A DNA stretch of 62,352 nucleotides, the filler included, from Hausera hauseri (Eukaryota): the NCBI GenBank assembly GCA_046269625.1. It is 9 parts of 9 records of this genome, joined end to end, with 100 filler letters (N's around TTAATTAATTAA, not from the genome) between each part and the next. Parts side by side here need not be neighbours in the genome. Positions count along the whole stretch, not along the records: positions 7,911 to 17,037 come from JBJURY010453245.1; 8 more parts are not named here. One strand, 5' to 3'. Below, piece after piece: positions 1 to 56,208 of the stretch. Both the position numbers and the translations under genes were made by a program. The notes beneath the pieces are model-generated. The model was not told the DNA's origin and searched no databases. It saw nothing but the letters and a program-made list of their open reading frames with translations. Numbering within the stretch: position 1 is the stretch's first letter; the number at the start of each line of letters is the position of its first letter.

Positions 1-1557
1 AGTGATACGGATTATGCGGAAGCACAGCTGGTTTGGTCTAAATACAGTTGCAGTTGTCTTTTGGATTATATGTTGCTATATATAAAGCTCGACGTATACT
101 GGTTAGGCGATATTTTTGAGTGGTTTAAAAAAGAAGTTAGGTTGCAGGATGGATTAGAGGCTAATAATTTCCTTTCAATTCCAGGTTTAAGTTGGGCGAC
201 AGCATTAAAATCAAGTCCTTGTAAGATTGAGCTTATCCAGGATCCTGAGATGTATCACTTCTTTCAATCGGGTATTCGCGGTGGCATGACTTTTGTAAAT
301 AAGCATAGGGTTGTCTCTGATCAAAGCACCAGTCTCCTGTATATAGATATAAATAATTTATACGGCTGGGCTTTATCACAACCACTGCCATTTGCGAATT
401 TTGTATGGATATATGATGAGAATAAGTTAATCTGTCTAACTGAACAATTGCCCTATATTAACTGTGTCACAGAAAAACGGGGTTTAGTATTTAAAGTTGA
501 CTTAAGCATTCCTGCTGACAAACATGATGAGTTGGACCAACTGCCTTTAGCCCCAATTAATAAATGTCCTCCTGGTTGAAAAGTTAAGAAATTGCTGCTG
601 ACGCATAAGCGTAATTCCAACTATGTTGTTCACTATCGTCTCTTACAGTTGTACATCGAGTTAGACGCTGTAGTTGAAAAGGTACATCGGGCTGAGTTTA
701 ATCAGAGTGATGTTTTTAAGGATTATATCAATCTAAATACTGCAAAAGGGCTGCAGCAAATAATCCTTTTGAAAAGGACTTTTTAAGCTTAGAAACAATA
801 GCTTTTACGGTAAAACAGTCGAAAATTTGATTAATAGGTCAAATCTGAAACTGTGTAATAATGCTAAAAAACTAGTTACATATGCTAGTAAAGCCCAGTT
901 TAAAGAGAGTATTATAATAGCCGATGATCTGGTTGCCGTTCTCCTCGATAAAGATATGGTTACGTTACATAGACCCTCATACATCGGTCAGGCCGTACTT
1001 CATCTATCTACGTTACGGATGTATGAGCTGAATTATACCGACTTGGAGACATATAGGCATCAGTTTAATTGCAAGTTAAATATTGTTGCCTGTGACACAG
1101 ACAGTTTTTTTATCAAATGCCATGGTGTGGACTTAAAATCACAACTCTTACCGGCAATGATAGCAAACGAGCAGTTAGATACATCGAACTATAATAAGAC
1201 TGATCCACTGTACTCGACTCGTTTCACAGCTGTAATTGGCAAATTTAAAGACGACAGCAAGGGCCGCGTCCAGTATCAGGAAGCGATTTTTCTACGACCG
1301 AAATCCTATGCACTCAAAACCCAAACCAAACCAGTGTTCAAGTGCAAAGGAATCAACCTCAAGCAGACAGAGCTACAGTTTGACAGCTACCGACAGGCTT
1401 ATGAATCCGGTTGCAGCACCATGGTGGACCAGGAACGAATTGGCAGTAAAAACCATCAACTAATGACAATCAGGTCGAAAGAAAAGCATTGGACCCGTTT
1501 GACGACAAACGCCAATGGATTGAGAAAAACCGGAGTGTAGCATACAAACATTATTGA
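1..1557 (+). pseudogene. Protein-primed family B DNA polymerase (Polinton/Maverick/adintovirus-like), C-terminal part, frameshifted
   Basis: Motifs SIPGLSW..ALK, GIRGG, YIDINNLYGWALSQPLP, NNSFYGK (789-815, other frame), ACDTDSF, IGKFKD, LRPKSY, CKG and a terminal DDKR; several frameshifts and stops; AATAAA at about 1588. Confidence 0.9.
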
Positions 1558-3849: not shown

Positions 3850-5250
3850 GTAACAAATTCGTCGGGTAAAATTTTATGTTAACAATTTAATAGATTCACT
3901 AATATATGCATAACAGAAGTATGACAAATTGACTGACCTTTTTTGACGCTATTCTTTAAATTTCCGATGATTTCTTTTTGTTTCAATGATTGCTGTTGTC
4001 GATAACTGATAAAGTAAAATTTGACATAATAACGCATGGTAAATGATGTGCAATTCTGGGGAATCGCTGGTACCTTTGTAGACAATTTGAACAGGTTTTG
4101 TTAGGTGTAGATTCTCGAGATATGGATGTATCAATGAGAATATATCACAAAATAATTGAATGTTCAAAATGTTCAATGTCACTAATTGTTCATAAATAAG
4201 GAATCTCGTGTAAAAGTGACTGTTGCAAACTGTGTCCACCATACTGTTCTCGCATGGTACGAAACTCTGGAACAACAGTTGGAATAAAGTATTTAGCTGA
4301 CTCATTGTTAGGCAGTTTTCACTAGCGAATTGAAATAATTTGCTGGCGACCTGTTATTTGACATCGGTGTCGGACATGAGTAACAGCGAACACGTCAAAC
4401 TGATTTCTTCGTCAGATAAACTCTTAACATCTTCCGCAGATGAGTCTTAGATACTGTTGCCGAGTATCGAGTCTTGATCCATGGACATGGATAAATCTCC
4501 GTTATGGGTATTGTCTAATTTAAGGATAGCCTTAATAAAGTCCGTGCAGAACACAATTGGATTGATGCTGGTTATGGCCATGATTTTAAATACTGCATTG
4601 AATACATTACCGAATCTATCGCTAGGTAACTCATTCGACTGTTCGATAATCATTTTCAGAATCAATGGAGGATGACTAATCATGCATGTGTCATCATATT
4701 CTTCTAAAAATTGTTCTTGTACGACACTTCCAATACCCGCAATCGCTGTAAATACATGTCCAATTCATCTTGCCATGCGATTAACTTCGCTGGAGAATTG
4801 CAATGCTCATCGGCTGTAACCTTCGCAATCCATTGCTTTATTACCTGGATTGTGTAAATCTTCTGTTGGGCTATTACAATATTTTGAGGAATGCTTTCAT
4901 AATATCAATGAACGTATTTATTACGACGATCTGATCAAGAATAGTCATGACAGACTGTGCAGTACTCTTAAACCACGTTAAACAATAATTGTACATATAC
5001 CCGTAGAAAATCAATTGTTTGGACTTATTTGGGAAGTCACAGTCATAGATATAATAGGAAATTAGACTTCTGACTGTTTTTCCTCTAATTATATCCTTAG
5101 TAAGTACGTTCTTTTGAACGTATTTTAGCTTATTCAGCAAGTTGTATATATTGAACCATGTTAAGACATTCGACGGAGTCATTTCTTGGATTAAAATGGG
5201 GATTGAATCGTCGATTAATAGAGATTGAAACGGCAAACGCTTTGAAACCA
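3850..5250 (-). pseudogene. Degraded fragments of unidentified helical (possibly HEAT-like) host protein gene(s)
   Basis: Consecutive co-oriented minus-strand ORF pieces (3949-4305, 4447-4683, 4874-5251) with protein-like composition, broken by stops; family not recognised. Confidence 0.35.
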
Positions 5251-6471
5251 AACAGCGCTTATCAAATGTATTTTCTCCCGAGTTGAAAAATTGCCCGATT
5301 TGCGAACTTGTTCTAAATCTTTACTGCTCAACTGTTTACCGCACTCTAAACACATAAAATATTTAATTACTTCCCAAAATACAAGATTAAATAGATCTTT
5401 TACTCGAGCCGGTTCCGGTGCACTCATTCGTTTAGCTTGTGGACCAGCATTTACCAAAGGCTCATCCTGACCATCATTTCTCAAATCCAAATGGGAAACA
5501 TGTGACGACGACTTAAATCCTGGATATGAATCATGTTCAATGACCTGAGTTTTATGATCTAATTTTCGATGGAGTTCAAAATCCGTTATATTGATAAATT
5601 GCAATATACAGCCGGTACAATGTTTGAACACGAGTTCTTTGTGAGTCTTCAAATGCTGGAAAAACAATCCGGTCTGACCGGCATTCGACATGGAACCCGG
5701 TGCATCAAGAACGTTCATTGGCAGAGCATCATTAATCGTATAGAGCCGTAAACAATACGGACAAATCAGTTCGTTCGTGTCACTATGGACTTTTTTGAAA
5801 TGTCCGATAACATCCTGGTAAAGTGACGTGTGGAAATTGCATATTGCACAACGGTACGGCATTTCATGTTCTCGATGAGAATTTTGCAAATGATACGCCA
5901 GTGCAAAATTACTGTCGCACTGTTTCTCACAAATCCGACAAGAAATCGTACAGATTATATTGCCGTTGTTTGTGTCGATATACACACGCTGTTCTCCATC
6001 GGGACCCATAACGGACATGTGTTCGGCTTCCATGTGATTGCGCAATTCGAATGCGTTATCTAACATTTTGCCGCACGTTTGACATTGGATAATGTCACAG
6101 ATTTTGAACATTTTCATGGATCTGTCGTCGATGTGCTGCAAAATGTGTTCAATTGTCGACACATTCGAGTAGCAAATCGTTTGACATGCGGCGCAACTAA
6201 ATCGATATTCGCCTTTGTTTTGTTGGGTCATGTAACGACCTTCAATTCGACCGTAATAGAAGTCATATAACGGTGTTAATTGGGTTGTCAGTATAAAACA
6301 ATTTGAATCATCCTCTTTTCCATCTTTAGCACATTTTTGAACCATTATTCCTTGTTCAGTGGATATGATTTCAAAACCCCACTTCTGACACCAATTCATA
6401 TTGACGAGATAAATCCAACACGAATTTTGCATTAAATCGTGATTAAACGAGAGTAAATGACTGTTACACAA
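5215..6471 (-). CDS. POGZ/ZNF280-family C2H2 zinc-finger protein fragment (intronless, ends probably chimeric)
   Basis: DFYYG...FSCAAC...HILQH, CRICE...HLQNSH..HEMPYRCAICNF.TS.YQDVIGHFKKVH..TNELICPYCL, matching the POGZ/ZNF280 finger cluster. Confidence 0.75.
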   Translation of the reverse strand: MCNSHLLSFNHDLMQNSCWIYLVNMNWCQKWGFEIISTEQGIMVQKCAKDGKEDDSNCFILTTQLTPLYDFYYGRIEGRYMTQQNKGEYRFSCAACQTICYSNVSTIEHILQHIDDRSMKMFKICDIIQCQTCGKMLDNAFELRNHMEAEHMSVMGPDGEQRVYIDTNNGNIICTISCRICEKQCDSNFALAYHLQNSHREHEMPYRCAICNFHTSLYQDVIGHFKKVHSDTNELICPYCLRLYTINDALPMNVLDAPGSMSNAGQTGLFFQHLKTHKELVFKHCTGCILQFINITDFELHRKLDHKTQVIEHDSYPGFKSSSHVSHLDLRNDGQDEPLVNAGPQAKRMSAPEPARVKDLFNLVFWEVIKYFMCLECGKQLSSKDLEQVRKSGNFSTREKIHLISAVWFQSVCRFNLY

Positions 6472-7810
6472 ATATGATTTAATCCACGTAACAAAGAAAA
6501 AACAGAAAACTTTAATTCCCTTTTATAAACAAACCGATCAATTAATTATTGGTAACTACAAACCACAGAAATCTACAACATTAATACACACAATATCTCC
6601 AAAAATGTCCTCATAGAAAGTCGATTAACTTCATATTTGCCGAATTAGTTCACCAGTACCACTATACTCATCGGACATAATTGTGTACTCAAACCGAACA
6701 TTATTATTCCTTCGTGTAACTGTGTCGATGATATCGGTGAAATCGCGTTTTGTCAGCCAAAACATCGTCATTGTTACCTGAACAAAATTTGCAGGTTTCG
6801 CTGACTGACTTCTGATACCGTTTCTTAGCATCAACATATGTCTGTGAACTGGTAGTATTTATCAAACGTGGAATAAAACTGATTTCGATTTTCTTTAACA
6901 AAAATGAGATTTCACATTCAGCATTCCGTTTGTTGGATGTCCGTAGTTATTCCGGGTTGTTGGACTGTGGTGGCATCCGAGTCCCTGGCACCACACCCAC
7001 CATTACCGCTACTTGCAAATTATTGTTATCGAAGGCGGCAAAATTAACCAAATAATAAGTAAATAAAATCCACTGTTGTATAAAATAAACCAATATTACA
7101 AAATAAAGTCAACTATGTCAACCAGACCAATTACGCAATTACCTATCACATTATCAAAGTTAATTAAAATAGGTTTGTGTAACACATTTCGAGTTTAAAT
7201 TATTCAGAATCATACAACGGTGAATTACAGATTACTGAACTTTATAAAATAGCCAAGTTTAAATTCCTTTAAAACTTCATTTTGAAACTGGAGTTTATTG
7301 ATCAAACTCTTAAAATGTCCTACAGCATCAATTCACTTAAATATTTTACCTTAAAGGTACAAAAAATATCCGTACAGTGAAACCTGCCTAAGTTTTACAT
7401 GGATTGTTCCATAAATTTTCTAAAGGTTAGGTAGGTGTAAAACTTATAAAGTTTCATGGGTAATTATGTATGAACAGGACTCCATGACATTTTACAATTC
7501 TATTGTAGGTGTGCGGTACAAAAATAGCAAAATATGCCCATATATGTAGCCATTAGGCCATTTTTCAACATTAACAAATTAACACCGTGTCCTCAGTTGC
7601 CCATTTTATTATGCCATAATTGACAATTTTTCTGCTACATACATAGGTTGGTTATTGAGAGACATCTTTAAATTTCCCCACCTGCTGTCCGCTTTGTGCT
7701 CTCCGCATTCGTTTAAATTTAAATTTACTTTAAAAATCCATATTTGATTAGACAACTGATATTCACATACAATTTGTTTGTTGGATTTATTGATTAGGTT
7801 TATTAGCTGT

Positions 7811-7910: not shown

Positions 7911-8396
7911 GGTATCATTTCCGCTCCAAATAAATTGACAGGAACAAATCTCGCAAATGGAATTACAGACAATAAATTTCAAAACACCTCATCGAAGGGT
8001 ATATGCAGGCCAAAGGAAATTGAGGCTTTTAGACAATTCCTTGCCTTTCGACGACAACGAACAAATGAGCTAAATCGAGCTATGGCTTCTGTAGTAGATG
8101 ATACGCGATAAAAGGCTCAACGGGAATCTTTACTCGGCGTAAACCATTATCAACAAGTAACAACCCAAATATTTTACAAAATTTGGGGAAGATTTCTGAT
8201 ATTCGGACAATCTGCATCCGGATTCTTAGCGATATATTTCCTGATACAGATGATTAAAGCAGTCATCCAAGCAGTAATTAATGAATACAAAATATTTACA
8301 TTAACTGGATTTTCTAGCAAGATACTGACTGCGATTATAACGCCTTTTGGAAAATTCTTAAGGCATACGAAGAGAATAGATGGAAATCAGACGTAG
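7911..8396 (+). pseudogene. Chuvirus-like (class III, gB-type) envelope glycoprotein, C-terminal membrane-proximal and TM region
   Basis: Manual translation from 7911: ...KGICRPKEIEAFRQFLAF...KIWGRFLIFGQSASGFLAIYFLIQMIKAVIQAVINEYKIFTLTGFSSKILTAII; fits the GIY...W..F..FG..SAG...K....I.GY.L....G.S..L.A pattern of chuviral G; one internal stop. Confidence 0.7.
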
Positions 8397-9029
8397 AACG
8401 TCACGTCGGATATCATAACCGTAAACGAAGAAGAATACCTATATTTTTGCGTAAGCGGAAATCTATAAAGCATATTACACGAAGAAATAATTCGGATGAT
8501 AACGAGCCTAAGGGAGGAGAAGTACCTACAGTAATAAATAGATATAAGGCGTATTCTGTTATTAAAGCACTACTGCCTATGTTACTTCCTACCGCTCCAA
8601 GTTATGAAGATTGTAACAAACGATCAATAAGTTCGTATCAAACGGAAATCTATAAAAGAACAATTAATGTAGAAGATTCTTATGAAGGAACGAAACGTTA
8701 CGGGATCCGACGGAAAATGTGTTATCGACAATCCACAGATGGTCCAAAGATGTTGTATTCTCCCAGAGAACCTTGGAACATAGAAACTAGATCAACGGTT
8801 TGGGATAATCCAAGGTTAAAAACTTTCCAGAATAATGAATTACACACTAATAATTGAGAACCATTAATTAGTACACACGAAGCGGAAGAGTTGCACATAG
8901 AAAATAACGAATTATATCCAAACGAAGAACTAAGACAGCTATCGGCGAATATAGTATCCTTCCTCGTAATCCGAATCAATGGACTCAAAATATCGGCGAT
9001 AAAACGCTTGAAGGATACATCAAACTGTT

Positions 9030-12000
9030 TTGGAACAGTAATAGAAGGACGACCCTTTACCAAAATCATTATTGAGGATCGGGAAGTTTATGCTTAATTG
9101 ACACAGGATCGGAAATGTCTTACATTAAAAATGATTCAATACCTCAAACGCTGCGAGGACACTTATGCCCACCATCCGCGAAAGACCGACGAAGTACGGG
9201 AGCTTTTGTTCAAATGTCAAAACCAATGTTTAAGTGGAACCCAGAAGTTCAGAAATTGGACAATTTTTCCATAATGAGTTTGCAGTTATGGAGCAATTAA
9301 CCGACGACGCACTTCTAGGAAGGGATCTACTAAAAAGACTGTTAAACATAGCAATTGACTTACAAACACGGAGGCTAATAGAAATCAGGTTAAACGTAGA
9401 CGTGAAAAGCGCTAAGGATAGAAAATTTGGAGAAGTGCTAATACCAGTTGACGAAAACATTCCACCAAGAACAGAAATGATAATTTATGCCCAAATACAG
9501 CAAGATGACGATCAACCAGTATATTTTGAACCGAGAGATACGTTAGATCCGAATATATTACTCAGCGATGTATTAACGAGAGTACACTCCTGCTGAGTAC
9601 CAATCAGAATAGCTAATAACGCGCAAACTCCTGTCAAGCTCCATGCTTATACTACTTTAGTACACACGTATAAAGTATCGTCAATAACTATCGAAGAAAA
9701 ACCTTACAAGTATGCTGAATTTTTATCTCATGTCGAAACTAAATTTTCCACTGAGTCCTACTATCGATTTTACGAATTATTATGCCGATATAAATCGATT
9801 ATCGCCAAGAACGAAGAAGATATTGATAGAGTGAAAGCATTAAAACTGACTATTCCGCTCAATAAAAAGCCCTGTTCGAATGAAGAAATAGACTTGGAAG
9901 ACCAAAAGATGCCAAAATGGTATCCGCCGCCGCATTCATTAAGGTCAGAGATAACGAAAGAAATCGAACGAATGCTTAAGGCCGATGTAATTAGGCCCAG
10001 CTATAGATCCTGGTACTCACCAATCCTTATGGTTGAAAACAAAGGTACTACAAAACATCGATTTTGTATTGACTACAGAGCCTTATATAATCTTATTATG
10101 AAAGATTCCTTTCCACTACCGTCAGTGAAAGAGGCTTTAGACCGATTATCAGGAGCAAAATGGTTTACCACTCTGGACTTACAATCCGGATACTGGAAAG
10201 TGGAGATAGAGGACGAAGACCGCTATAAGACAGCATTTAAAACACGCGATGGTGTTTATGAGTTTAATGTCATGCCATTGGGTATTACTACCGGGCCAAC
10301 CATATTTACGAGAATGATGAACAAAATGTTAATTGGACTGGATCATGCTTTTGCTTATTTAGATGACGTGATGATAGCGTCATAAACCGGTGAGAAACAC
10401 TTAAAGGATATTGGACATACACTGATGAGGCTAGAACAAACCGGCTTGAAATTAAATCCAAAGAAATGCAAAAGGGCTTAAAATGCAGTATCCTACCTTG
10501 GCCATATAGTTGGAGAAGGAGGATCGATACCGGAAAAATTATTATTAAATAAAATATCAGATTGTATGGAACTACAAAACCAAAAAGAATTAAGGCGCTG
10601 GCTAGGATTATGCGGTTATTATGCAACCTATATGCCAGATAATTCAAGGATAAACGCATTTTTATATCGTCTACTTAAAAAAGGAATTAAATGGAAATGG
10701 ACAGACGTCAAACAGAAAGCTTTTGATGAGATGAAGCAGATATTAACAAGTGAACCTCTTTTATGATATCCAGATTTTAACTTACCTTTCATAATTAAGA
10801 CAGACGCCAGTAAAGAAGGCATAGGTTCTGAACTAGCATAGAAAAGAGAGGATGAAGAATTAGAGCATCCGATTGCTTATGGAGGACGTTCCTTGAAAAA
10901 GACCGAGAAGAACTATTCTGTTACCGAATTAGAAACTCTAGCCGTAAAAGAGGCACTTCGACACTTCAATGTTTATGCATATGGACAGAAAATTATAATT
11001 GTAACTGACCACAAGGCCGTTACGACCCTAAACGGCAGGGCAAATAACTCAACATGTAGACTTAACAGGTGGATTGAAGAAATCACCAGATATGATATTG
11101 AATTCCAGTATAAGCCAGGGAATAAACATGTAGACGATGATGCATTATCGAGATTAAAGACCAAAACCAGTGCAATTACTGTAATGAAGAGAAGCCAACT
11201 GGAAGAGATAATAGATCATCAACGCGCTTTGACAATGGATAAAGCAATTAAAATTTCGACAGAACAGAGAAGGGATAAAGTCATCCAATAGATTATAGAA
11301 TTTGTTAAAAAGGATGTCATACCAAAAGGACGACAGTTAAAGAAACATTTACACAGACACGGACATAAATATTGCATCTTAAATGACAAGAGCAGTGAAG
11401 ATATTTTATATTACGAATGGAAAGGAAAGAAACTGATAGTTATTCCAAAAGGTTTACGAACCGAAGTACTGATGTACGAACATGATTCATATTTGGCCGG
11501 ACACATGTCTTGGAAGAAAACGCTGGAAAGAATAATGAATAAATACTCTTGGCCTAGTATCTATATTGATTTGAAAAATTGGGTGAATGCTTGTGAAGTA
11601 TGTGCAACTAAACAAAAGAAGACGAAAAATTACATGGCCAAACTAAAACCAATTGATGTACCCGACAGGCCCATGCAAGCCATTTTGATGGACATCGTAG
11701 GACCTCTTCCTACGACTCACAAGAACAATAAATATATTTTGACGTGTATTGATCGACTAACTCATTTTGTCGAGTTGATAGCATTAATTGATCAAAAGGC
11801 AGAAACCCTGGCAGAAACCGTAGTAAGGAGAATTATTTGCCGATACGGACTTCTGACCAGATACTCACGACCGAGGAAGGAATTTCACAGGCGAACTATT
11901 CGAGAAGATCACTAAGATATTCGAAATTGAGCGGTTGACAACTACCGCATGTCGCCCTCAGTACAATAAAATGGTCGAACGGATGAATGCGACCGTTATA

Positions 12001-12530
12001 CGCATATTATCAACAGTAGTAGCAAAGGATCAAAAATATTAAAACTAATTTTCAGAAGGAACTCAGTTTGCTATTAATACCACTCCACACCCGGCAACAG
12101 GATACATACCATTTTTATAATGTATGGACGTGAAGCCGTGTTACCTACGGACTAAGGAATGACGCCATACACGGTCAATCCCAAAGATTTAGAACGAAAT
12201 TTTGCAGAAGTACTACAGATGCGACTGCAAAAGTGTTAGGAAATAGCCAAGGAATTATCCCAAGACTATCAAAAACAGTTTAAAAAACAGTATGACAAGA
12301 AAGCAAAACCGCATGATTTAGAACAATGCAATAGGGTTTATGTACATTACCCAGTAGCCAGAAAAGGCACCTCATTAATATTAACGCGTACAGGCAGAGC
12401 ACCGTACGAAGTTACCACAGTTACGCCAACCACAGTATATATCAGTAAAAATGGAAATGAAGAAGTCATACCGGTACAAAGAGTTGTTAGGACAGAGATA
12501 CGGTCCAATAAACGTTACAGCCTACGACAA
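9030..12530 (+). pseudogene. Ty3/Gypsy pol (aspartic protease, RT, RNase H, integrase), with multiple stops and frameshifts
   Basis: (L)IDTGSEMS and LLGRD; RFCIDYRAL, LDLQSGYW, MPLG, YLDD; KTDAS, NYSVTELE, TDHK; H-x6-H...C-x2-C, MDIVGPLP, IDRLT; C-terminal GRAPY and RYSLRQR. Confidence 0.95.
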
Positions 12531-12559
12531 CGCGAGGTAAAAACGTCCTCAATAGTTGC

Positions 12560-13974
12560 CAGACCAATATCGTACATTCAGATAGTTTTAGCATTATCAT
12601 TAATTGCTTTTTATATTTCGAGAACACAAACTCAATGGTGGTACGATGAATTTACGCTAGGAGATATATACGGAATTCGGAAAAGTGGAATAAAAACGAG
12701 GAACAAACCAGAAAAGGAGGATTAACCCCGAATTAAATTCAAAAACAGGAAGACAATAGGAAGACTACTACAATCTATGGCATTCCATTACTACTCACCA
12801 AACTCCATATGTGTTGAATTTAAGGTCTGGAAACCATTCCGTGATTTCGGGAGATTTCAAATTGTCTTAGACGATGTAACAACAAAAGAAGCAAAGAATT
12901 ATGATTTTGAACCTGGAGGTTACACGCAATGCTGCGACATAGATTTTCGACACACTTATAACGTCACCTATCGCCTGTACTTACCGGACTCATCCGACGT
13001 TTATATTGAAACAAAACCGCAATTTCAGTTGTTTATTCCTGCATGGAACAGACATCATGGGATAAAACCCGACGAAATTCTGCGATCCACCGACCCATAT
13101 ATCCAGCTATTAGACGAAAATATCCAGAAAATTTCTGTAAACAAGGCAAAACAATGCATTCAAGTAGACGCCCGAACAGAGCTAACTGTTAGCCGAGAAA
13201 TTAGTATCACCTTCGAAGCGACAATTGGACCAACTCCGAAGATAGAATATTGTTCTATACGCGTAGATGTACAGCACCCCTATTGCAAACTGCCCGTGAA
13301 CCAAAAGTTCAAAATAAAATTTGACTTATACGAAGTACGACTTAACAAACCAAGTATACAGCTACGAACTTACTATCCAGAAAATAGAATAATGGAAATT
13401 TCAGCGGGAACCACGACCAGAGTCGACCATTAAAGTTAATTTAACTACCCTAACCGTTACAGCGAGCAACATACATATAGCAGAGTTGGAAAGCACACCT
13501 ATCAAATATTCGGCGCACCGGTATAAAATCGTGTTCTTTGTGGAAAAGAAACAAAATTACGATATACACATAAGTTATCGAACAACATATAATAATCAAA
13601 TTGTAACACTATTTAAAAATACTTATCAAACAGAATGAAACTTACTAAAACCACAATCTGAATACATAGTACAAGTGCATGCAGAGAACAAGCAAAAAAG
13701 AAAAATTACATTACGCACCTTAGACGAAATTCATACAGAACCGCACTTATATGCAGATGAAAACAACGAAAACACAATTTTATCTACTACCCAAGCACCG
13801 TTAGAATTAACCGTCTTACCGATTGTATCTATTGTTGCACTATCAACATTTCTTCTCATTATGTTAATTGCGATTTTTCGATTAGCTGCCCAAAACCATT
13901 ATTCCAAGCGTCCTAAAAATTCAGAATGGGAATTAAGGGAATTGGAAAATCCTATAGACCCTATGATAAAATAA
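12560..13974 (+). pseudogene. Type I membrane protein with fibronectin type III-like ectodomain, in frame with integrase
   Basis: Hydrophobic signal YIQIVLALSLIAFYISRTQT right after IN; SPNSICVEF...DIDFRHTYNVTY; canonical FN3 motif LKPQSEYIVQVHAEN (about 13642-13690); TM LPIVSIVALSTFLLIMLIAIF and a short tail. Confidence 0.7.
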
Positions 13975-14019
13975 CCTGACAGTTACAGATCAGGTTATTC
14001 TGTCATCAAACAAAGAATT

Positions 14020-14077
14020 TGTTTTGGTTTAAAACCATCCTTTGTTTTAAGATTAACCTTCATGTTTTTTTGTTCAG
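14020..14077 (+). promoter_or_regulatory. Putative splice acceptor (branch point + polypyrimidine tract + CAG) ahead of the accessory ORF
   Basis: gattaacc...catgtttttttgttcag: a T-rich island in an otherwise A-rich sense strand, followed by a long coding-like frame. Confidence 0.5.
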
Positions 14078-14729
14078 ATTGGTAAGTAATCAAACCCAGT
14101 TGAACCCAAGCCGACTTAAAATCGACACCGAAGAAACTACGAGCTGATTTAGAATCGACACCGAAAACGCTACAAGTCGACTTAGCATCGACGAATTTTT
14201 ACAGAAATATGTGACAGTACGGATCCCAAATTCAAAAGCCGCCTATAGGCAAATCAATACTGAATTACAAGGGAAGAACTTTGTTCAATACGGAAAAGTT
14301 AATGAAATCGCAAACGGTTTGAAAGGAATGAGCGAGGAGGCCAGAGCAGTATACTAGTATGCATGGATGTAGGACAAAGATGCTAGGGCATACCCTTTCA
14401 AACAAATCACTCAATATCAAACGGATAAAGAACAAAAAATATACCTACACGTGGCCGACGGAGAAATTTATTATAGACTAAAAGATCAGAAATGATACTG
14501 TTCACAAGAAAGGCAAAGCCGGTTTAGCACCTTCGTATTTGGCAGTAGGAGCTTCCACGATTACGAGCTAAAATTTCGCGTAGCCGCCTTACCAGTAAAA
14601 TTGATGATCGAAACAACGGAAGAAGAAGTAATACCTACCTCATTGCTACCCTTAGAGTTTAGACAAAGGCCCACGAAAGACGAATATGGCACACATCTAC
14701 ATTCGTTTAGATTGGTAGCCGATGAAAGA

Positions 14730-15250
14730 AACTTCAGGATTGTTGCAAAAACTATGGAGAAGGAGAAGAAAGAAATTATATTCCGATCGAAATATCCATT
14801 CAAGAAGAAAATGTGGCCGAGGTCTATTCGAAAATCATTAACCCGTAAAAGAAAGTGCTAGAAACTTATGCGGAAGTTACCGGGATTAAAAGTGAACAAT
14901 TGAATCATGGAAAGGATTCCAAGTTAGTACAACAAGAAGTAGCACAATGCTTCTATGGATACATCTTAGTGGGATATCAGATAGAGAGGATTATGAAGAA
15001 ATTAGCCATACCGGTAACGTATATAGCCGGAGTGAAAGAGAGATAGAAACCCACCCGACTATTATTAAACAAATGGGAATTAAGGCTAAAGAAAAATGGG
15101 CCATCTACCACTGTCCGTGGAAGGCCGTTTTAAGTTAATGGTAGAGGCCATGACCGGTGGAAATATAAAAATAAGCAGATTGCTCACTGCAAATCAAAGA
15201 TCCCAATATCTAAATGATATAAATGCTGGAATAAAGTGGGAACATGAATG
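14730..15250 (+). pseudogene. REX4/ISG20-like DEDDh 3'-5' exonuclease domain, catalytic residues apparently substituted
   Basis: IEISIQEENVAEVYSKIINP*KKVLETYAEVTGIKSEQLNHGKDSKLVQQEVAQCFYGYILVGYQIERIMKKL aligns by eye to REXO4-type ARVSIVN...VYDKYVKP...T.VSGI.PE.L..G.....VQKEVA..LKG.ILVGH.L.NDL..L. Confidence 0.75.
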
Positions 15251-16199
15251 GATTTCCAGCAACCCCGGGAAAAACCTACGAAATTTCCCCAAACCCGAAG
15301 GACTCAGCACACGATATCGTAAACATTTCGGACCATAATCTCCACCCAGGAATGTCGAAATTAAACCAATATGAAACTAGCAAATAATTATACAAGGATT
15401 GAAAACGGAGAAAATGGAGAATAAAACACGTACAGATAAAAACCCAGCATAAGTTATGGCGCCACCGCAGATAATAATCTATTTAAGATACCAGAAATTC
15501 CTCGGAAATACATAGAAGAAAAACATAGAAATTCAGAGACCGAAACCGGAAAAACAACTAAAAGGAAAACCTCCTTTTTCGATTACCTATTCAAGAAAAG
15601 AAGTAAAGAAGGAGAGAAAAGATTAAAGGAAGGACACAGGCTAGACAGAAAAGATTCAAAACCAACACGACTAGATAAACCAAGACAACCCGCGGAAAAA
15701 CTCTCAAAAATAGACATACAATCCCGCGTTGAAAAGTTCACGAGAAACCCAAGAAACCGGAAGAACAGATAACAGAAATAAACGTTCTACGGAAGAAGAC
15801 ATCCACAGAAGATGTGCACTACGCCACTACGGCAGACTACCCCAGGATGCTATTAGCCACAGAATATTACAGCAAACAGAAGATTAAAGAGGCAATGTTT
15901 TTTGTCAAACTAATGCCTGCCAGACAAGTTTACAAGAACACTTATGTCTGGGAAAATCCTAAGATTGGAAAATACGTTGCTCCGATATTTCAGTCCATGT
16001 GGATAAATCAGTTAAGCTACTACTAAAGAAACAGTACCAAAAATGCCGGTCGACTGGTAAAGTTCCCTATTTAGATCCAGATACTATCAGCAATTAGACC
16101 CTAATAGCCGTTGGATGCGACCCTAAAAAAAGCTCGATAAAGCGAAAGCAAAAAAGAATCTATGCCTACCTATACCAAGATGAGGAAGGCTTGATAGTA

Positions 16200-16526
16200 G
16201 AGCCTATTGAGATTATGTTAAGAGTGGATCTAGATGACGAAAATTGGGTGAGAGAGGAGAACGAATGTCCCGTATGTGAGGCAAATCTGAAACAAGGATA
16301 TGTAGTGTTAAATAACCCAGACTGCCGACATAAATATTGCAGAGACTGCCTAGAGAAATAAACGTTGGATAATGGAAAGACCACATGTCTAGAGTGCCGA
16401 GCTGAAGCTGCCGACCTAAAGTACTACTCAAACGGTAGCTATACCAGAATAGTTAAAATTAAGCCGTACCACAGTTTTAAATTAGAGACGAATACCAGAG
16501 AAAGCCAGCCTAGTACCAGTTCTTGA
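16200..16526 (+). pseudogene. C3HC4 RING-finger domain at the end of the accessory ORF
   Basis: CPVC-x14-CRHKYCRDCLEK*-x7-CLECR (16266-16400); the conserved Trp codon is replaced by TAA, so the ORF track misses it. Confidence 0.85.
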
Positions 16527-16617
16527 CCCAGTCTGAGAACACGCATGGACATGTTGCGTTTGCCTCGCCCTCGCGGCACCTCTCCTGACGCAATGGGGAC
16601 ATCCGAAGATGCCGTTC

Positions 16618-16629
16618 AGGGAGGAGAAG
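16618..16629 (+). other. Polypurine tract (PPT)
   Basis: agggaggagaag immediately before the TGTTACA LTR start. Confidence 0.85.
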
Positions 16630-16999
16630 TGTTACAAATGGTAGATACAATTGATAACGCCGTGAATAAGAAACGCGAACATTGTAAATAATTTATTAGA
16701 ATACCAACATTATAAATAATTTAGTGGAATAGAACTGTATCGTACCACTAGGATATATATATTATTTATGAATGAATAGACTAAAATTTTATTTGTATAG
16801 AATAGTGATAGAAAGAAACGAATGGCGTATAGTTGAAAATAAGAATTAATAATAAATAATGTATAGAATGGAGAAAATAATAGAGTGCGAATTAATAGTT
16901 TATGACGTACCAGACTATATAAAGAAGGCAGTTTGAAAATGAAGACAGAACTTACAACAGCGATTTGGTCGAGTTGAAGGATCAATTTGAATTGTTACA
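16630..16999 (+). repeat. 3' LTR (about 370 bp)
   Basis: Starts TGTTACAAAT after the PPT and ends ATTGTTACA (imperfect inverted termini); TATATAAA at about 16916. Confidence 0.75.
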
Positions 17000-17037
17000 G
17001 ACAGATATTGACTCATTGTGTTATTCTTGGAAACTGT

Positions 17038-34849: not shown

Positions 34850-37800
34850 TGAACACAGATAGATCATGGATGATCTAACGATAAGAAGTGCTGAAGTTGG
34901 GAATGAAGAGAAAAGAGAAGATTGTTATCCTTGATCAATTCTTCCACACAATCTTGGCGGGAGATCGGGGCCCGCCTATGGACCCGACGCGTCGGCAGCG
35001 GAAACCCGGCTGTGCCCAACCAAATGGACCAGAGGGCGGTGGTCGATCTGGGAACATCATCATCCCCCCGTGGCAAAGTTAAAACTATGAAGAGTAAAAG
35101 AACAGAGAGAAAAAATCGCAAAACGAAAAGTGTCTGTGTCAGCTGATCTTAGTGTGAACAAGACGTTGGGTATCTTCTATTGATTTTACCCTGCTATACT
35201 TGCTGAATGTGACTCTGCGTGTTTTGTCTTTATGCGATGTGTTTGTTTGCGGAGATTAAAGTTGGGGAAAATTTGTGAGATTTTTGTGTAGGTTTTGTGT
35301 CGTGCGAAGGTAAATCGGAATAAAGAGAAGAGGAGGGCGGAGAAGGAAGAGGGACTGTTGAAAAAGGATGGTTAAAGGCATTGAAAATAGTGTTAGAAGA
35401 CGAAATAGTGATAAAAGGTGTAGTGGCGGATAATGGAACAGAGGAAAAAGTTGGAGTAGAGATTGGAATTGAATTGAATGAAAGAGTGGAAGAGGAAGAT
35501 GATACAGAGGGAGTGGTAGGAATAGAAGTAGATAGTGTAGAAAATGATGGAGCAGGACTAGGAGCAAAAGAGGAAGGTGGAACTGATATAGCAATAGATA
35601 TAGGGATAGCAGGTAGTGGAGGAGTGAGAAAAGAGGTTGACGTGTCGGTTGGTAAGGTGTCGTCGACAAAGAAAGCGGGCTTTAAGTTGGTAATGTGTAC
35701 TCTAAGTTCTTTGCCGTCTTTAGAGATAATGGCGTTGTGTGAGTATAGCTGTATCATTTTATAGGGCCCCAAGTACCGTGGGTGGAAACCCCAAGGCGCC
35801 TGATTCTTTAGCCATACGAATTTTGCCGTGTACAAATCTTCGTGTAAGTATGTTTTATCTTTGTGAAATATCCTAAAGAACGAATCTTTACTCACCTCGA
35901 CGAAGTGATTTTGCGCTGCCCGTATCGTCTCATCTGTGGGCGTGTCGTCCATGGCGGTTAGTTCAAATAATGATTGGACAGGAGCTCCGAATAAGACTTC
36001 AGTAGGTGAGCATCCTGTAAAAGTGAACGAAGTGTTCCGCCAACCAAGCAGAACGAACGGAATAAGATTCGTCCAACTACTGTTGAACTCTGCGAGAATT
36101 CGTAGTGACGTTTTCGATGTTTGGTGGAAACGTTCTAGAATGCCATTCAATTGGGAGTGATAAGGCGTAGTATGTATATGATGGGTCCCCAATTGGTTAA
36201 CAATAGATTTGAACAGGTTGGATTCAAACTGTGGACCCTGATCCGTGAAGGTAAAACGAGGTGATCCAAACCTGTTAATCCATTTATGAATGAAGACGTC
36301 AACTATAGTGTCGGTGTTTGTGCTCCGCAGAGGGATGGCTTCTGGACATCGCGAGGAACGGTTTATCATGGTAAGGATGAATTGATATCCGTTGTCTGGA
36401 GGAAGAGGGCCGACGATGTTGATATGCACGGATTCGAAACGCGATGTGCAGGGAAAGTGGAATAGTGGTGGCTTTAAATGATTAGCTGTTTTGTATTTTT
36501 GGCAAGCCACATACAACTTAACCCACGCCTGCATATGAGAACGCATTGACGGCGAAATTACTTGTCGATGGAGTAAACGAAAGGTGGCTTTAGCACCAGA
36601 ATTGTTTAGTGCATGCATTCTGTGAAATGCTTGCCTTTGCAATGATGGTGCTAGAATTATTACGGAATGGCCTGGTTTGGAAGTGTCTAAAGCCACGCCG
36701 TCAACGAATGTGCAAGACTTAAAAGAATTAAGCATTTCCTGAGATGACTGGTTCTGTTGAAGTTGATCTTGCGTAAAATCGGTGAAAAATTAATCGAACT
36801 AACCGACCTAGATAAAAAATCGGCAATTAAATTGTTAACCCCGTTAATGTGTTCAATATCGAAGTTAAATATCTATCAGTATGATATTTGTCGTTCTTGG
36901 CGTGTGGAAGGGTATTTCATAGCCATGATGTTAAGTAAGGACTTGTGGTCGGTTTGTATAGTAAAATGACGAGCGACAAGTAGGTGGGAGAAATGCTTTA
37001 AAGCGAGAACGGTGGCCAATAGTTCTCAATCGAACGTTGAATATCTGGTTTCAGGGGATATTAGCTTACGAGCAAACAATTCTAGTGGTTGATTTTCTCC
37101 CTTATAGATCTGGTGGAGTACAGCGCCTGCTGCAGTGGTTGACGCGTCTGTCGTAAGGTTAAGTTCTGCATCAGGCTTGGGAAAAGCGAGAATATCAACG
37201 GTCTTAATTTCTTCGCGTAACTTATCAAAGTTTTCAACCAATTCAAGTGTCCACTGGATTGGCTGATGTTTTTTTGCCGCCGCTTAGGTGTGCGAATGAT
37301 TCTGTCAATTCGGAGCAATATGGTACATATTTATGTACAAAGTGTAGTGTACCAAGGAAGCTGTGCATTTCGGTGGTTGTAAGTGGCAACTGGATATTTT
37401 TAAGAGCTTCGACTCGGTATGGTTGGAGGGGAATGCCCGTCTGGTGTAATAACGTGGCTTAAAAAGTTAATGCGCTTTTTGGAGAAATGGAATTTATCAA
37501 AACTGATTTGGAGATTATGGTGGTTAAGGCGTTGGAATATTGCGCGAAGGTGTTCCTCGTGTTGTTTGGCCAAAGATGAAACGACTAGAATATCATCGAT
37601 ATAAGGGTGTGCAAACAGGAAATCTAAAAGAATTGAATCAATGTGCCGCTGAAAAGTTTGTGCGGCATTCCTCAAACCGAATGGCATAAACAGGTATTCG
37701 TAGAGACCAAAAGGAGTAGTGACAGCAGTTTTTCTATGTCTTCTGGTGCCACCGGTATTTGATGGTGTGCTTTAGCTAAATCAATGGTCAAATAGATGGT

Positions 37801-40345
37801 GGTTGAATTAAAATGATACAAGATATCCTTGATGAGTGGTAAAGGGTACGCATCTATGATTGTCAAGTTATTCAGCTGTCGGTAGTCACTGAATGGTCTA
37901 AAAGTACCGTCCTTCTTTGTACAACGTGTAGAGGTGATGACCAAGGAGATTTGGAACGACGTACTCTGTCGGCACGTTCTAATTCAAGAAATTCAGCTTC
38001 TACGGCCTGTTTACGACGAGGTGACAGAGGTCGTACCTTTTGGCCTATTGGACGTTGATGCTGTGTAACTATGTGGTGTAAAGTACTGTTTGCTGGAGTA
38101 AACGTACGATCTTTTTAAGTACGCGTGTACATAATGTGTTGACGAATTGCTGTAAAGTTGTAGGTAACTGTAAGAGATTTGGTGGAAGTGGTGAAACGGC
38201 TTGAGTAGTAGCAGATGCAATTTGTGAATTGTTGGCTATGTGCAATAAAGTGGTATTTGGTGTAAGATGGTCGAATTGAAAATGGTGTTGAATGAAGTGA
38301 TTTTGTCGAATGAATTAACGTTGGTGGCAATACCACAATTATCGACATCGAACCTCAGTCGAATATCTGTATTAGTATTTAAAAAATTACGAATTGAATT
38401 ATTGTTATGAAAATTTGAATTATTCATTGATTTTGCCAAGATTGACCTCCGCGTCCCGGTCGACTGCGCGGTAGTCGAAATGCTATTGACATGCTCAGCA
38501 ATGTCGCTATTGGTGCCATTCCTCAAACATCGCTGACTGCAGTCAACCAATAGGTTATAATGTGATAGAAAATCGGAACCAAGAATTGCCGTCTGGACGT
38601 TAGCGAATGTGAACGTCCAGTAGAAAGGTGAAGGAAATTTTAGTAAAGTGAAAGATAATTTAGCCATGCCAGAAATGTGCAGCGGTTGACCTGAAGCGGT
38701 GTATAAAGACTTAATTCTAAATGGAGAATTTTGTACAGGAAAGGTTCGTGGTATTAAAGAAATCGCTGCACCTGTAGCGGTGAGGAAATCAACATATTGC
38801 GTTGTAAGAGCGGTGATTGCAGCCTTTAGAGTAAATACAGCAAAAGAGACGTGTCGGCGTTCAGAAAGTGAAGTAGTGCCTTTTCCAGAGTTTGCCGTGA
38901 CTTCTGGCAGCGAACTTAGGTTTTTTGAGCGGGTGAACTAGGACGAATATTAGAAGGAAAAGTAGTACGTCCATCATTCGTATTTAATTTGAAAGTGCAA
39001 CCTGGAATGCATTTACGAGCTTGGTTTTTGAACCGTGCATGGTAGATGCAAACAACGGTTTCCGAAGAAAAACTCTTGTTATAAAATTTGCACCCTAGGC
39101 AGCACTTCTGCGCACTCGCGTTAAATCTGCTGTGATAATAGCAGATCGACGAACGCACAGGCGATGGTGAGCGGTTTCTAGACGCACAACGAACGCGGTC
39201 AGCGAAAAATCCCCTCGGCGGGACAGAAAAAGTTCGTTTAATTTATTATTAATATTGTTGATTGTTGCGTGTACTGCAATATTTTCAGCACGTAGCTGAT
39301 TAAGCTGTTGTTCTACTGATGTGTTATTGGCTTGAATATCGTTAGTGGCAACTGCTGCCGAAACAACTGATGGGGAATTTACGTGTCGAACGTCGTGTGT
39401 CCTATGGGCTAATTCGGCCAATTTCTTCAAAGACGTGGAGTCCTCCACCACGGTAAGTAGAGCCCGGATTTGGATAGGTAGCGCATTGAGGAAATAGTGG
39501 CGCAGTAGATCTGTATTGTGTTCTGTAGTGACGCCGAGGGTATGTAGATGTGCTAAAGAGGTGCGTAAGAATTCTGATTATCATTGGGTGCCTATAACGT
39601 TGTCGTGGAAGAAACGTTGTATGATCGTGTCCATGGAAGGTTCTGTGATCTTAAGAACTGCGTTGAAAAGCTGGGGATATGGGTCAGGAAGTTCAAAGAT
39701 TTTGATGATGTTGTGAATGCGTGTTTTGATGTTATTAGGGAGTAAGAAGAGGAGATTATGTGCTTTAGTTAAAGAGTCAGTAATGTTATTTGCCTCTAGC
39801 CATAGTTGATGAAATTGCAACCAAGTTTTTCTGGAGCCTTGGTTGTCAATAAAGAATACGGTGCAGTGGGGAAAAGGAGCGGAAGAGGTAATAGGTGAGA
39901 GGTTGCTAGCAGGGGTAAGAATGGGATTTGGAGAAATATGACAGGTTTTGATTTTGTGGTAATTTTATCCGTGGTGTATATGTTTGGCGATGAGTTCATG
40001 CCACCACGGGTACGGATATGTATGTGGAGACAAGTATGGGTTGAGAAAGATGGTAGGGTTCCGGTGAGGGGTATTATAGAACCGTTATATTTAAGATAGA
40101 AATCGGAAGATTTGAGTAAGAAATAAATGAAGGTACGAAGGGTTGCAATATGTAAATGTGATGTAATAAGTGTGTATATGTGCTTATTATTTATGAAAAG
40201 GAAAATAGAGAATTGGAAGGTAGTCTACCTGGGGACGCGCTGTGGGGCCGACGCGAAAGACGCCGTCTGACCGACCCGTGCAGGGTTGACGGCCGGGACC
40301 TCAGCCTAGTCGCGACGGGCCACAAATTGCGAAGTGGCCGAATTT
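34850..40345 (-). mobile_element. Near full-length CsRn1/Boudicca-like Ty3/Gypsy retrotransposon (gag with double CHCC, PR, RT, RH, IN with Ser/Pro/Thr-rich tail), degraded
   Basis: CYYH...C...C and CIYH...C...C; ILGSDFL; MPFGLRNAAQTFQR, YIDD; TTDAS; TDQGPQFES, ERFH, YLGPY; PPT-like ggggggatgatga before TGTTCC at 35056. Confidence 0.92.
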
Positions 40346-40369
40346 CCCCTCAAAAGTGCGGCCTTTGTT

Positions 40370-41140
40370 ACTCGGAATTTCTGGATTGCTATCATGACAT
40401 CTCTAGGCTTAATTTCACCGCGATAGTTCATGACAATCGATATGAATTTCCCTTTATTTGAGCCGGTTTTAGTCATTTGGTGATCTTTCGAGGAGACACC
40501 TTTTATAATCTCTTCGATCGATGGACTGGCATACTTAAATCGTGTTTGGTGCAGAATTGGAGAATGACTCATTATTTTGTGGTGTATCTTTGGGTACGAT
40601 ATTGAATTTTTATGTATTTCTTTCAAACCAGTATTCATCGTTGTTTCAAATTGCGCTGATGTTGTAGATGAGCTAATCGTTATAGATGTTATTCGATTGA
40701 GATTAGGATAATATGGTGAATTCATGAACAATAGATATTTACAAACATCATAAAGAGCTTCATTATCAAAAAGTATAGACAAATCACACGTATCTAGTGT
40801 TGTATGACTATGGAATACGCTATTCTATAGCTCAACAATCGCAGTAGACATTATCAGGCTGGGAAATAATTCCAATTGTATTCGGTTTGTTTTGGGGTAA
40901 TCAATGGCTAATTGCTGCATTATCAACGCAGCAACTCTAGACCCGTACCACCACCCATACTGTTAATGACGATAAATGCATCCAAATTATTCGTCATTTC
41001 AGCTAGTTTAAATAGTCGCGGTCGAAACAATCTTACCAGTCGTACACCAGGATTGAGGCTTCCTCGCGCAAAATTGTTACCTGGATCTTCACAGTTAGTA
41101 ATCATTGATTCTCTGCTAAAAATATTTCGATATGCTCCAG
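40370..41140 (-). pseudogene. tuba: Divergent alpha-tubulin fragment, frameshifted
   Basis: EDPGNNFARG, SMGGGTG, FDNEALYDVC, YPNLNR, YPKIH, YRGEI.P.DV. Confidence 0.85.
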
Positions 41141-41142
41141 AG

Positions 41143-41261
41143 TAGTTGGTAATACCAGGAAATAAAAAACTTCCATTTTTTTCATTTTTTCTCGCTCCCT
41201 ACCGGTCGTTCAAAGAAAATGAAAAAATGGAAGAGTTTTCATTTACTGGTATTACTAACTA
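41143..41261. repeat. Fold-back hairpin of about 120 bp (MITE-like)
   Basis: tagttggtaataccaggaaat...cttccatttttttcatttt and its imperfect reverse complement, around a short GC-richer loop. Confidence 0.7.
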
Positions 41262-43020: not shown

Positions 43021-44556
43021 TCAGCCGCTTTTAGCTCTCTCTTCAGTTTCCTTCTCTGTCGTCAGTTTCAGAATTTTCTGCTGGAATCGTTGAATTGTAT
43101 TTTCTAATTCTAATTCTTTATTTTCTAATTCAGTCTGATGAATGGACAGATCGTCCTCCAGATATTGGTTGTCAATTCGTAGGCTCCTGATTTCTTCCTG
43201 CATGTTTTGAATGTTCTTTTTCCAAGAAGCTCTTTGCTTTTTGAAGTTTGTCTCCTTCTGTTGGGCCTCCTGAACGCTGGCCTCATATTTGGATTGTAGC
43301 TCATCGAAAGAGCATCTCAGGAGATCCAGACTCTCTTGCAGTCGTTTGGAGGATTTTGAATGGAAGCCCAACTGTGACCTGATTTGTTCTTGAAGATTTT
43401 CATAAGAAAGTGTCACCTCCTGCAGGTTCAGTTCATTCTCTTCAGATTGCATTTTCAAAGCGGTGACTTCCGCCTTCAGAGTTTTCTTTGCAGAAATCAG
43501 TTTGAGATTTTTCTCCTGAAATTTTTGAATCTGATTTTCTAAATCTATTTGTTTCTTTGCTGCTTCAGTCCGTTCCATGGTGAGATATTCCTTCAGAGTT
43601 TGGTTAACATCCTGTAGGCTCTGTATTTCGTCCTCCATATTTGCTATTTTCTTTTTCAAAAGAACTCTCTTCTTTTGGAAGTTTTGTTTCTGCTGTTGGG
43701 CGTCCAGAACGGTGGCCTCATGTTTGGATTTTAGCTCGTTGTAAGAACCTGTCAGGTGTTTCAGACTCTCCTGCAGCTGTTGGTATTCAGGAAAGTCCTG
43801 GATATTCTGACTTTTCTTCCCCGATCGTTTTCTGAAAATGCAGAGTCTTTCCAGTATATTTTTCTTCTTAGGCCTGTCCTCTGCCTCAATCTGTGAACTC
43901 TCTTTGAGTTGTTTTTGAAGCTCTTCGTAAGAACGTTTCAGATCATATAGCCTCTCGTGAAGATTCAGTTCCTTGTCTTCAGATTGGCTTTTCAAAGCAG
44001 CGAGCTCTTTTTTCAGAGTTTTCTTTGCAGAAACTAGTTTTTTATTCTTCTTTTGAAGTCTTTTGATCTTGTCGTTTAGTTGTGACACCTCGTCGTCAGA
44101 TTCTCTATGCAGCTCAGCTTCCAAACCCTGTATAACTTCCTGCTGACTCTGTAAATTCTCTTCATAAGAATACTTTTGTTCTAGGAGTTTTTCTTTGTAT
44201 CTCTGCCGCTGCTGTTCATATTTGACCATCAGTTCTTCATACAATACTCTAGAATCACCAAGACTCTCCTGAAGAGACATTTCTCTGTCTTTTGATGTTT
44301 GCTGTAAGTCCTGCAGATCTTTTGTTTTTGCTTGTAGGCTTTCAGTGACCTCCCGAAGTCTCTCCTTAAGTTTTTGGATTTTTGCTCGCTGTTTTTCAAT
44401 CTTCTCAGAGTCTGGAAGGTTGTATCCCTTCTTTGAATCTGGCTGATCTGATGACTGACTGCCAGCGTTCTGCAGACAAGCATCCATGGCTTCCGAGTTC
44501 TGATGTTCTGAGGGACCTGTGGCCTGTTCAGAAAGGTCCTCGCTCTCAGCCAACAT
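43021..44556 (-). CDS. Intronless coiled-coil protein with internal repeats (511 aa)
   Basis: Long open ORF rich in K/E/Q/L heptads; repeated segments (KL.SAKKTLK.E..ALK.QSE..ELNL; LQESL..L..S..EL.SK.EA.V..AQQ). Confidence 0.7.
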   Translation of the reverse strand: MLAESEDLSEQATGPSEHQNSEAMDACLQNAGSQSSDQPDSKKGYNLPDSEKIEKQRAKIQKLKERLREVTESLQAKTKDLQDLQQTSKDREMSLQESLGDSRVLYEELMVKYEQQRQRYKEKLLEQKYSYEENLQSQQEVIQGLEAELHRESDDEVSQLNDKIKRLQKKNKKLVSAKKTLKKELAALKSQSEDKELNLHERLYDLKRSYEELQKQLKESSQIEAEDRPKKKNILERLCIFRKRSGKKSQNIQDFPEYQQLQESLKHLTGSYNELKSKHEATVLDAQQQKQNFQKKRVLLKKKIANMEDEIQSLQDVNQTLKEYLTMERTEAAKKQIDLENQIQKFQEKNLKLISAKKTLKAEVTALKMQSEENELNLQEVTLSYENLQEQIRSQLGFHSKSSKRLQESLDLLRCSFDELQSKYEASVQEAQQKETNFKKQRASWKKNIQNMQEEIRSLRIDNQYLEDDLSIHQTELENKELELENTIQRFQQKILKLTTEKETEERAKSG

Positions 44557-44637
44557 ATTTCCTCAGAATAAATCTGTGAGAAAAACTTCAAACATTACCT
44601 AGTGCTTACGTTCTGACTGAAAACTTATCTGAATACA

Positions 44638-54370: not shown

Positions 54371-54597
54371 GGGGGTTGAAGGGGGGGTTCGTGTGAGGGT
54401 GTGTCTTGGTGATGTTGGTGCTTGATTAGTGTGCATGGCTTAAGCTCAATTATATTTGCATTTTTAGGTTTAACATCAATTTTATTAGCATTTCTAACTA
54501 TCTGTGTTACTTCTGGGCTCCCGCTAGAGGTGAGGTGGTTCCTGTCCGGTGGTTGTTCATCTTCACGTGTTCCTGGTCTTTTGTTATGGGGCAGTAG

Positions 54598-55755: not shown

Positions 55756-56208
55756 GCTTGTATTTGTACTCGAGTTATGAGACAGTGTTGATATTCTAAA
55801 ATAGTCAGTTAGTTAATTGTAATCACGATTTGTGGTCAGTATGATCAGTTATAATGTAGTCTTGAGTGGGTCAGAGAACTTGCAGTTGTTTGGTCAGTTA
55901 CAATAAAAACCTCACATGCGTCTGAGACACAGTTGTCTGGGTTCCTCCTCGAGGAAAATTACACAGTAACACTAAGTATGGTCGGTTACAAAATAAAATT
56001 ATAATAAGTCTGAAACTTACAGTTTGTGTGAGTTCCTCTTCAAGATAACACTTCCCACATGGGACACTTGAATGGTTGCCAGATGGCGTCCGTGGAGGTA
56101 GTAATTATCGGAAATAAGTAGTTAAATTCCAGTTGACTTGCGAGCTGTCTGCTTTGTGCGCGCCATTTCAGTTAGATCACACTACCGAGCAACACGCGTA
56201 TAAATGGG

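Follow-up and report, generated by a model that had tools for sequence, protein, structure and literature searches.

A probable decayed Ty3/gypsy element of Hausera hauseri with a gB-type envelope end before the protease, and a Tyr-Pro motif shared by the envelope tails of most of its relatives

The DNA analyzed here (the window, 62,352 nucleotides from Hausera hauseri, filler included) consists of nine short contigs with eight N44-stop-linker-N44 joins between them and is not a single locus. One of these contigs, 7911-17037 (9.1 kb), probably represents a Ty3/gypsy retrotransposon that is present in many copies, this one decayed, and has an envelope protein (env) of the gB type directly before its protease; the identity of the element and its gene order, taken jointly, are highly probable. 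A (gag)-env-pol order with a class III fusogen is already published, and the gene order itself is nothing new. The part worth following is a Tyr-Pro (YPxL) motif in the env tail that is shared by relatives, rather than the PTAP sequence highlighted in an earlier note on this DNA. The end of env, a coding spacer, the order protease-reverse transcriptase-RNase H-integrase (PR-RT-RH-IN) and the decay are all found in the contig, and the same layout is present in a single open frame in each of 14 relatives. When intact, the element probably encoded a single gag-env-pol polyprotein, with the spacer as the cytoplasmic tail of env.

Results

The contig starts inside a gB-type envelope gene

The contig begins at position 7911, and native sequence upstream of it is absent from the window, so that 5' extension beyond the end of the envelope glycoprotein (G) is impossible there. 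The contig starts inside env; gag, the env ectodomain and the LTRs lie outside it. Region 7911-8393 (+) encodes the C-terminal end of an envelope protein of the chuviral-G/herpes-gB type, as shown by PF24664, phmmer and hydrophobicity. It comprises a stem, a transmembrane helix and a second hydrophobic helix, is truncated by the contig start, and contains a stop at 8109-8111. With the stop read through as X, it matched PF24664 (Monjiviricetes_fusion) with E 1.8e-19 over profile positions 468-604 of 653, and the open piece 8112-8393 alone gave E 9.6e-16. The encoded portion is the final quarter of a fusion glycoprotein of the Monjiviricetes type. A G-like transmembrane region in the frame from 7911 had been described in the earlier note, and both the profile match and the hydrophobic peak at 8223-8279, which is the transmembrane helix of G, bear this out. 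A word-seeded search with the G piece found no matches among 440 candidates, whereas phmmer did succeed; searching PDB sequences with the G alignment returned just three weak, unrelated rows.

Relatives carry G and protease in one frame

The phmmer search with the G piece gave 96 matches, the best of which are polyproteins with an in-frame protease after G, often followed by RT-RH-IN. Nine of the best 11 matches have a Pfam protease after G, P0133 has a protease motif and P0124 stops short. Thirteen of the 96 are single proteins that have both the G anchor and a protease motif; with P0225, which was added later, there are 14 intact relatives in which G leads to the protease in a single frame. 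A profile search for further G-tail-PR proteins yielded two matches among 5,683 candidates, one of them new. Upstream of G, gag or CCHC was detected by Pfam in P0128, P0136 and P0225 and by eye in P0123 and P0133.

For P0124 the fold of the full-length G was predicted from a 31-row alignment (pLDDT 77.8). Its best E-values were 1.5e-14 with herpes gB and 1.2e-42 with chuviral G; the TM-scores of 0.3 and 0.5, respectively, go with matches that are significant by E-value. The assignment of env to the HSV/gB type combines PF24664 on the contig piece with fold evidence from relative P0124, the contig ectodomain being absent. Profile searching, proposed in the earlier note as a check for a class III fusogen, was thus positive for the contig, and P0124 matches both gB and chuviral G. 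The order (gag?)-env-pol proposed in the same place is likewise supported by the PF24664 match, the G-PR polyproteins of the relatives and the P0124 fold.

Tandem aspartic protease domains were seen in P0219, P0128, P0131, P0125 and P0127, some of them after the integrase, and P0219 has five catalytic protease motifs. P0123 is listed at NCBI as a protein of a Flavobacteriaceae MAG and is likely a mis-binned animal retroelement.

The spacer between G and protease is coding

A spacer at 8360-9091 (+) leads from G into the protease, with a frame switch near 8350-8360 and a stop at 8855-8857. Its frame is considered coding, with this one stop in 259 codons where the two alternative frames have 17 and 28; about 19 stops were expected (P(<=1) about 5e-8). 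One frameshift and a single-stop frame running to the protease had been claimed: the one stop was found, but the frame reaches only the first protease strands, and switches near 9090 and 9255 as well as the stop within G had been overlooked.

The spacer is about 0.7 kb long (about 245 amino acids), and G lies within 2 kb upstream of pol. It occupies the place of the tails of 57-317 amino acids that connect the env transmembrane helix to the protease in the 14 relatives. Since the intact relatives run G into the protease in-frame and have gag upstream where it is visible, the spacer is read as the env tail, and the earlier description of a spacer instead of gag does not hold. The absence of a capsid or zinc knuckle between G and PR was confirmed: Pfam detected no capsid family, and no CCHC knuckle was found in six frames of 7911-9300. 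Profiles built from the gag, tail and post-integrase parts of the relatives had no significant match in the window, with best E-values of 0.6, 0.64 (in the spacer/PR frame) and 0.16; the gag profile was an insensitive one (positive control E 0.6). The relatives' tails cannot be aligned to the contig spacer (profile E >0.6).

The spacer might instead be a short, unrecognised gag in an env-gag-pol element, comparable to the F-type elements of oribatid mites. ENV-GAG-POL order with a short gag is known, the spacer is longer than most of the relatives' tails, and the gag profile is insensitive. However, the mite elements with this order are F-type in the account of PMC13524379, the spacer contains neither capsid family nor knuckle, relatives with the same G have gag upstream, and a tail as long as 317 amino acids exists in P0125, which makes a gag in this place highly improbable and leaves the env tail as the preferred reading.

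Protease, polymerase and post-integrase region

The aspartic protease at 9029-9350 (+) was read from the translation and is spread over three frames; one switch, near 9090, precedes the catalytic D-T-G (Asp at 9100) and the other, near 9255, lies inside PR. Pfam gave no score for the protease piece 9076-9297, and tblastn alignments of relatives begin at 9255-9306. It is followed at 9351-12550 (+) by a PR-RT connector, reverse transcriptase, RNase H and integrase, interrupted by several stops and frame switches (Pfam: RVT_1 E 3.3e-22, RT_RNaseH E 1.2e-22, Integrase_H2C2 E 1.1e-17, rve E 2.5e-5). This order is that of Ty3/gypsy, and no dUTPase match was found between PR and RT. A quick tree with 106 of 127 candidates placed the RT-RH part of the contig nearest to env-carrying rows on a long branch; in a more careful tree, built from 35 rows selected by hand, it falls outside a 100/99 clade of env-carrying rows. 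One clade for the contig pol and the env-carrying rows was neither rejected nor shown (p-AU 0.127). The most fitting view of the contig element is that of a divergent lineage whose layout is that of its env-carrying relatives.

Downstream of the integrase, hydrophobicity analysis revealed a second membrane module at 12552-13974 (+), consisting of a signal-like stretch, an ectodomain of about 400 amino acids and a transmembrane helix at 13822. The ectodomain shows a weak FN3 resemblance (fn3 E 0.049, below the cut-off). A like hydrophobic pattern follows the integrase in P0123, P0131, P0219 and P0222, and visibly in P0018, with no significant sequence match; an atlas search with the post-integrase ORF gave no usable match. 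Further downstream, a RING finger at 16263-16397 (+) (zf-C3HC4_2 E 1.9e-5, below the curated cut-off) is located in a broken accessory frame that is probably still within the element. It is the sole accessory domain of the planarian Burro type found, as against BIR, BCL2, MATH, ankyrin, SUMO-like and dUTPase-like domains. Further broken accessory frames are present at 14199-16700 (+) at repeat-level cover, and no 3' LTR was recognised before the contig end.

The contig is probably one copy of a repeat family

AT skew along the contig is 0.13, 0.24, 0.21, 0.20 and 0.28, compared to -0.02 and -0.07 in neighbouring contigs. Because this strand bias is continuous in the contig and missing from its neighbours, we regard the contig as a single element. 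In the public run X1, possibly the source sample, 22,296 contigs match 7911-17037, most of them 80-95% alike. Over 30 bins, summed depth, which does not equal copy number, was 711-27,202 in all but the last, where it dropped to 6; repeat-level cover extends to 16755 with almost none beyond, showing that the repeat family takes in G, the spacer, pol and the accessory region.

The env-protease frame, open in the 14 relatives, is interrupted in the contig copy by a switch and a stop. The stop 8855-8857 differs in 77 X1 contigs (3,165 of 3,254 depth, 97%), and length differences at the switch from G to the spacer were seen in 17 X1 contigs (1,905 of 4,680 depth). Since many other copies differ, both look like decay of the present copy. 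As to whether other copies keep G, linker and PR open, many are without the stop and the switch, but no single X1 contig spans the whole stretch.

If the contig were a chimera, G would stem from some other retroelement or from a chuviral endogenous element with no relation to the gypsy pol that it borders. The contig pol is not firmly placed with env-carrying relatives and no X1 contig reaches from G to RT, both of which would fit such a junction. Yet the top G matches are G-PR polyproteins and not free chuviral G, and repeat-level cover runs across the junction. The spacer is coding and has a purine run of 13 bases but neither a repeat of LTR size nor a PBS-like motif, the strand bias is continuous, and the post-integrase membrane module is shared with several of the relatives. 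A chimera is thus very unlikely compared to a single element.

A Tyr-Pro motif is shared by most of the tails, PTAP is not

Motif scans of the tail found PTAP, a TSG101-type motif, at 8588-8599 (+) and LYPNEEL, which fits LYPx3L and is a candidate for either a late domain of the ALIX type or a site of protease cleavage, at 8912-8932 (+), about 62 residues before the catalytic Asp. The P(T/S)AP and LYPxnL matches lie on the cytosolic side of the membrane in a topology inferred from hydrophobicity. PTAP had a chance of 0.003 in shuffles of the spacer for a motif chosen post hoc, and P(T/S)AP occurs six times across six frames of the window; PTAP is mildly unusual only. Conservation among the relatives fails, with P(T/S)AP in one of 14 tails (PPxY also in one of 14). 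Of the late-domain claim made for PTAP, the presence of the motif stands and its recurrence in relatives does not, so a function of PTAP in the element family is doubtful. The claim as put, that the fusogen has a late domain facing the cytoplasm, is still plausible, but for the family as a whole PTAP is a weak candidate; the motif that relatives share is Tyr-Pro/YPx(n)L, which the earlier note had overlooked.

A Tyr-Pro, often YPxL-like, is located 30-63 residues before the first protease Asp in 11 of the 14 relatives versus one of 30 other gypsy polyproteins. Among the 13 relatives of the initial set, 10 tails contain YP (shuffle mean 2.96; 0 of 5,000 shuffles reach 10) and six contain YPx[LI] (shuffle mean 0.52), although the motif was noticed before testing and the relatives share descent. 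In this set YP stands 30-56 residues before the first catalytic Asp, and in a window of 25-65 residues it is present in 10/13 compared to 1/30 of the other gypsy polyproteins; these controls belong to other clades and are the 30, out of 120, whose upstream sequence was long enough. P0225, discovered after the motif had been defined, has IYPEL at 63. Altogether, eight of the 14 relatives fit YPxL or YPx3L and three are without Tyr-Pro. In the contig spacer alone, LYPx3L has a chance of 0.04. None of the 22 majority differences in 8583-8935 (X1) falls into the PTAP or LYPNEEL codons, a weak observation for PTAP, which lies at the thinly covered edge. Because the tails are otherwise unalignable and range from 57 to 317 residues, the retention of the Tyr-Pro motif suggests selection.

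YPDL and LYPXnL motifs bind ALIX, while PTAP binds TSG101 (PMC2958808; PMC2651531). The Tyr-Pro motif may be a late domain of candidate ALIX type, a tentative reading to which we give somewhat less than an even chance. Another function would be that of a cut site which frees the element protease from the env tail; PTAP would then be incidental and the tail would hold no ESCRT motif. Aromatic-Pro bonds are often cut by retroviral proteases, the motif precedes the catalytic Asp by 30-63 residues, and the later Leu/Ile varies (YPxL or YPx3L in 8/14) whereas Tyr is always followed by Pro, all in keeping with cleavage. On the other hand, the distance to Asp varies twofold, one of 30 polyproteins without env has Tyr-Pro, and YP precedes just two of 11 listed later protease copies of the same polyproteins, a count in which P0219 and P0222 share clusters with P0127 and P0132. 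Cleavage is a real possibility, at roughly one chance in three. An improbable third function is that of a tyrosine-based YxxPhi trafficking signal that directs env to the membrane where assembly takes place: signals of this type function in the Env tails of retroviruses (PMC1592117), and YPTI, YPLL, YPDL, YPHL and YPEL all fit, but YPNE of the contig and four relatives fail YxxPhi and nevertheless retain Tyr-Pro.

Discussion

Comparison with known elements

GAG-ENV-POL Ty3/gypsy 'errantiviruses' with an HSV/gB-type ENV have been described in Platyhelminthes, Nematoda and Bryozoa, alongside F-type ENV-GAG-POL elements in mites (Chary and Hayashi, eLife 2026, PMC13524379). The nine flatworm elements in that work, six of them from Schmidtea mediterranea, resemble the contig in having a gB-type env directly upstream of a Ty3/gypsy pol and in being multi-copy; the contig copy is broken and truncated, and the likeness considered here is one of layout and description. 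The main text of that article does not contain the terms 'late domain', 'ESCRT', 'fibronectin', 'polyprotein' or 'Burro'.

In the giant planarian gypsy element Burro / GYPSM1, env lies in frame between gag and pol, just before the protease (PMC6431247). Further likenesses are the accessory RING and the decay of copies by stops and frameshifts in one species; among the relatives, P0124 has Bcl-2 before G and P0219 has ankyrin, both as in Burro. P0219 also has several extra proteases. Likeness to planarian elements fits a host that is probably a flatworm. Burro env has been likened to gypsy Env (F-type) and to mononegavirus glycoproteins, so its class may differ. Burro is >30 kb with long LTRs and upstream domains, whereas the contig is 9.1 kb and starts inside env, and section 7 of PMC6431247 does not describe a post-integrase membrane module. 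In the literature we found neither this module nor late domains in the env tails of gag-env-pol elements described; Grohme 2018 and Sacco 2022 may already cover both.

As in the retroviral late domains (PMC2958808; PMC2651531), both motif types occur in one spacer upstream of the protease. The retroviral motifs are in Gag, while the candidate motifs of the contig are in the env tail. Mosquito BEL/Pao elements with a chuviral glycoprotein go by the name Anakin. In such BEL/Pao elements (PMC7642597) the same glycoprotein family was captured by an LTR element, but of another superfamily and in another host.

A proposed membrane-threaded polyprotein

Intact relatives have hydrophobic segments ahead of G, at its end, downstream of IN and near the C-terminus, and with four such segments the polyprotein would cross the membrane four times. 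An internal signal sequence behind Gag would send the env ectodomain into the ER lumen, and the env transmembrane helix would return the chain to the cytosol, leaving the tail and Pol hanging from the inner membrane face. Gag would thus be cytosolic, G lumenal, the tail and Pol cytosolic and the second ectodomain lumenal. Pol could be packaged via its tether to the spike through the env tail and not by a Gag-Pol frameshift. At the bud neck, a tail motif of the YPx(n)L type might recruit ALIX/ESCRT, PTAP being an optional extra in the element family, and the protease would then free itself and the enzymes. That the fusogen tail, not Gag, serves as conserved ALIX-type late domain and Pol tether, with the FN3-like protein as attachment partner of the fusogen, is a speculative proposal that we rate as rather unlikely as a whole. 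On this last reading, the budding of gag-env-pol elements would resemble that of RNA viruses whose single polyprotein is threaded through the membrane.

The tail motif bears on whether flatworm gag-env-pol elements are true viruses. If it is a late domain, it would provide sequence evidence that selection favoured the exit of these invertebrate elements from cells in enveloped particles, and it would explain how one gag-env-pol polyprotein can both package polymerase and bud.

Other contigs of the window

The remaining contigs contain eukaryotic genes and retroelements according to Pfam. A Polinton-type DNA polymerase piece is located at 1-1540 (+), a C2H2 zinc-finger frame at 5215-6522 (-) and a coiled-coil frame of 513 amino acids with an internal repeat at 43021-44562 (-). 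Two copies of another gypsy element, about 86% alike, lie on opposite strands at 37611-40121 and 59856-62352; the former directly borders a tubulin piece at about 40300-41150 (-) that is decayed and apparently has no introns. A near-intact non-LTR element with an ORF1 knuckle, endonuclease and RT was found at 51026-55812 (-). At 57103-58929 (+) an uninterrupted frame of 608 codons, for which atlas matches to 57103-58926 were of the HEAT/GCN1 type, encodes a HEAT-repeat, GCN1-like protein, possibly a single exon or a retrocopy.
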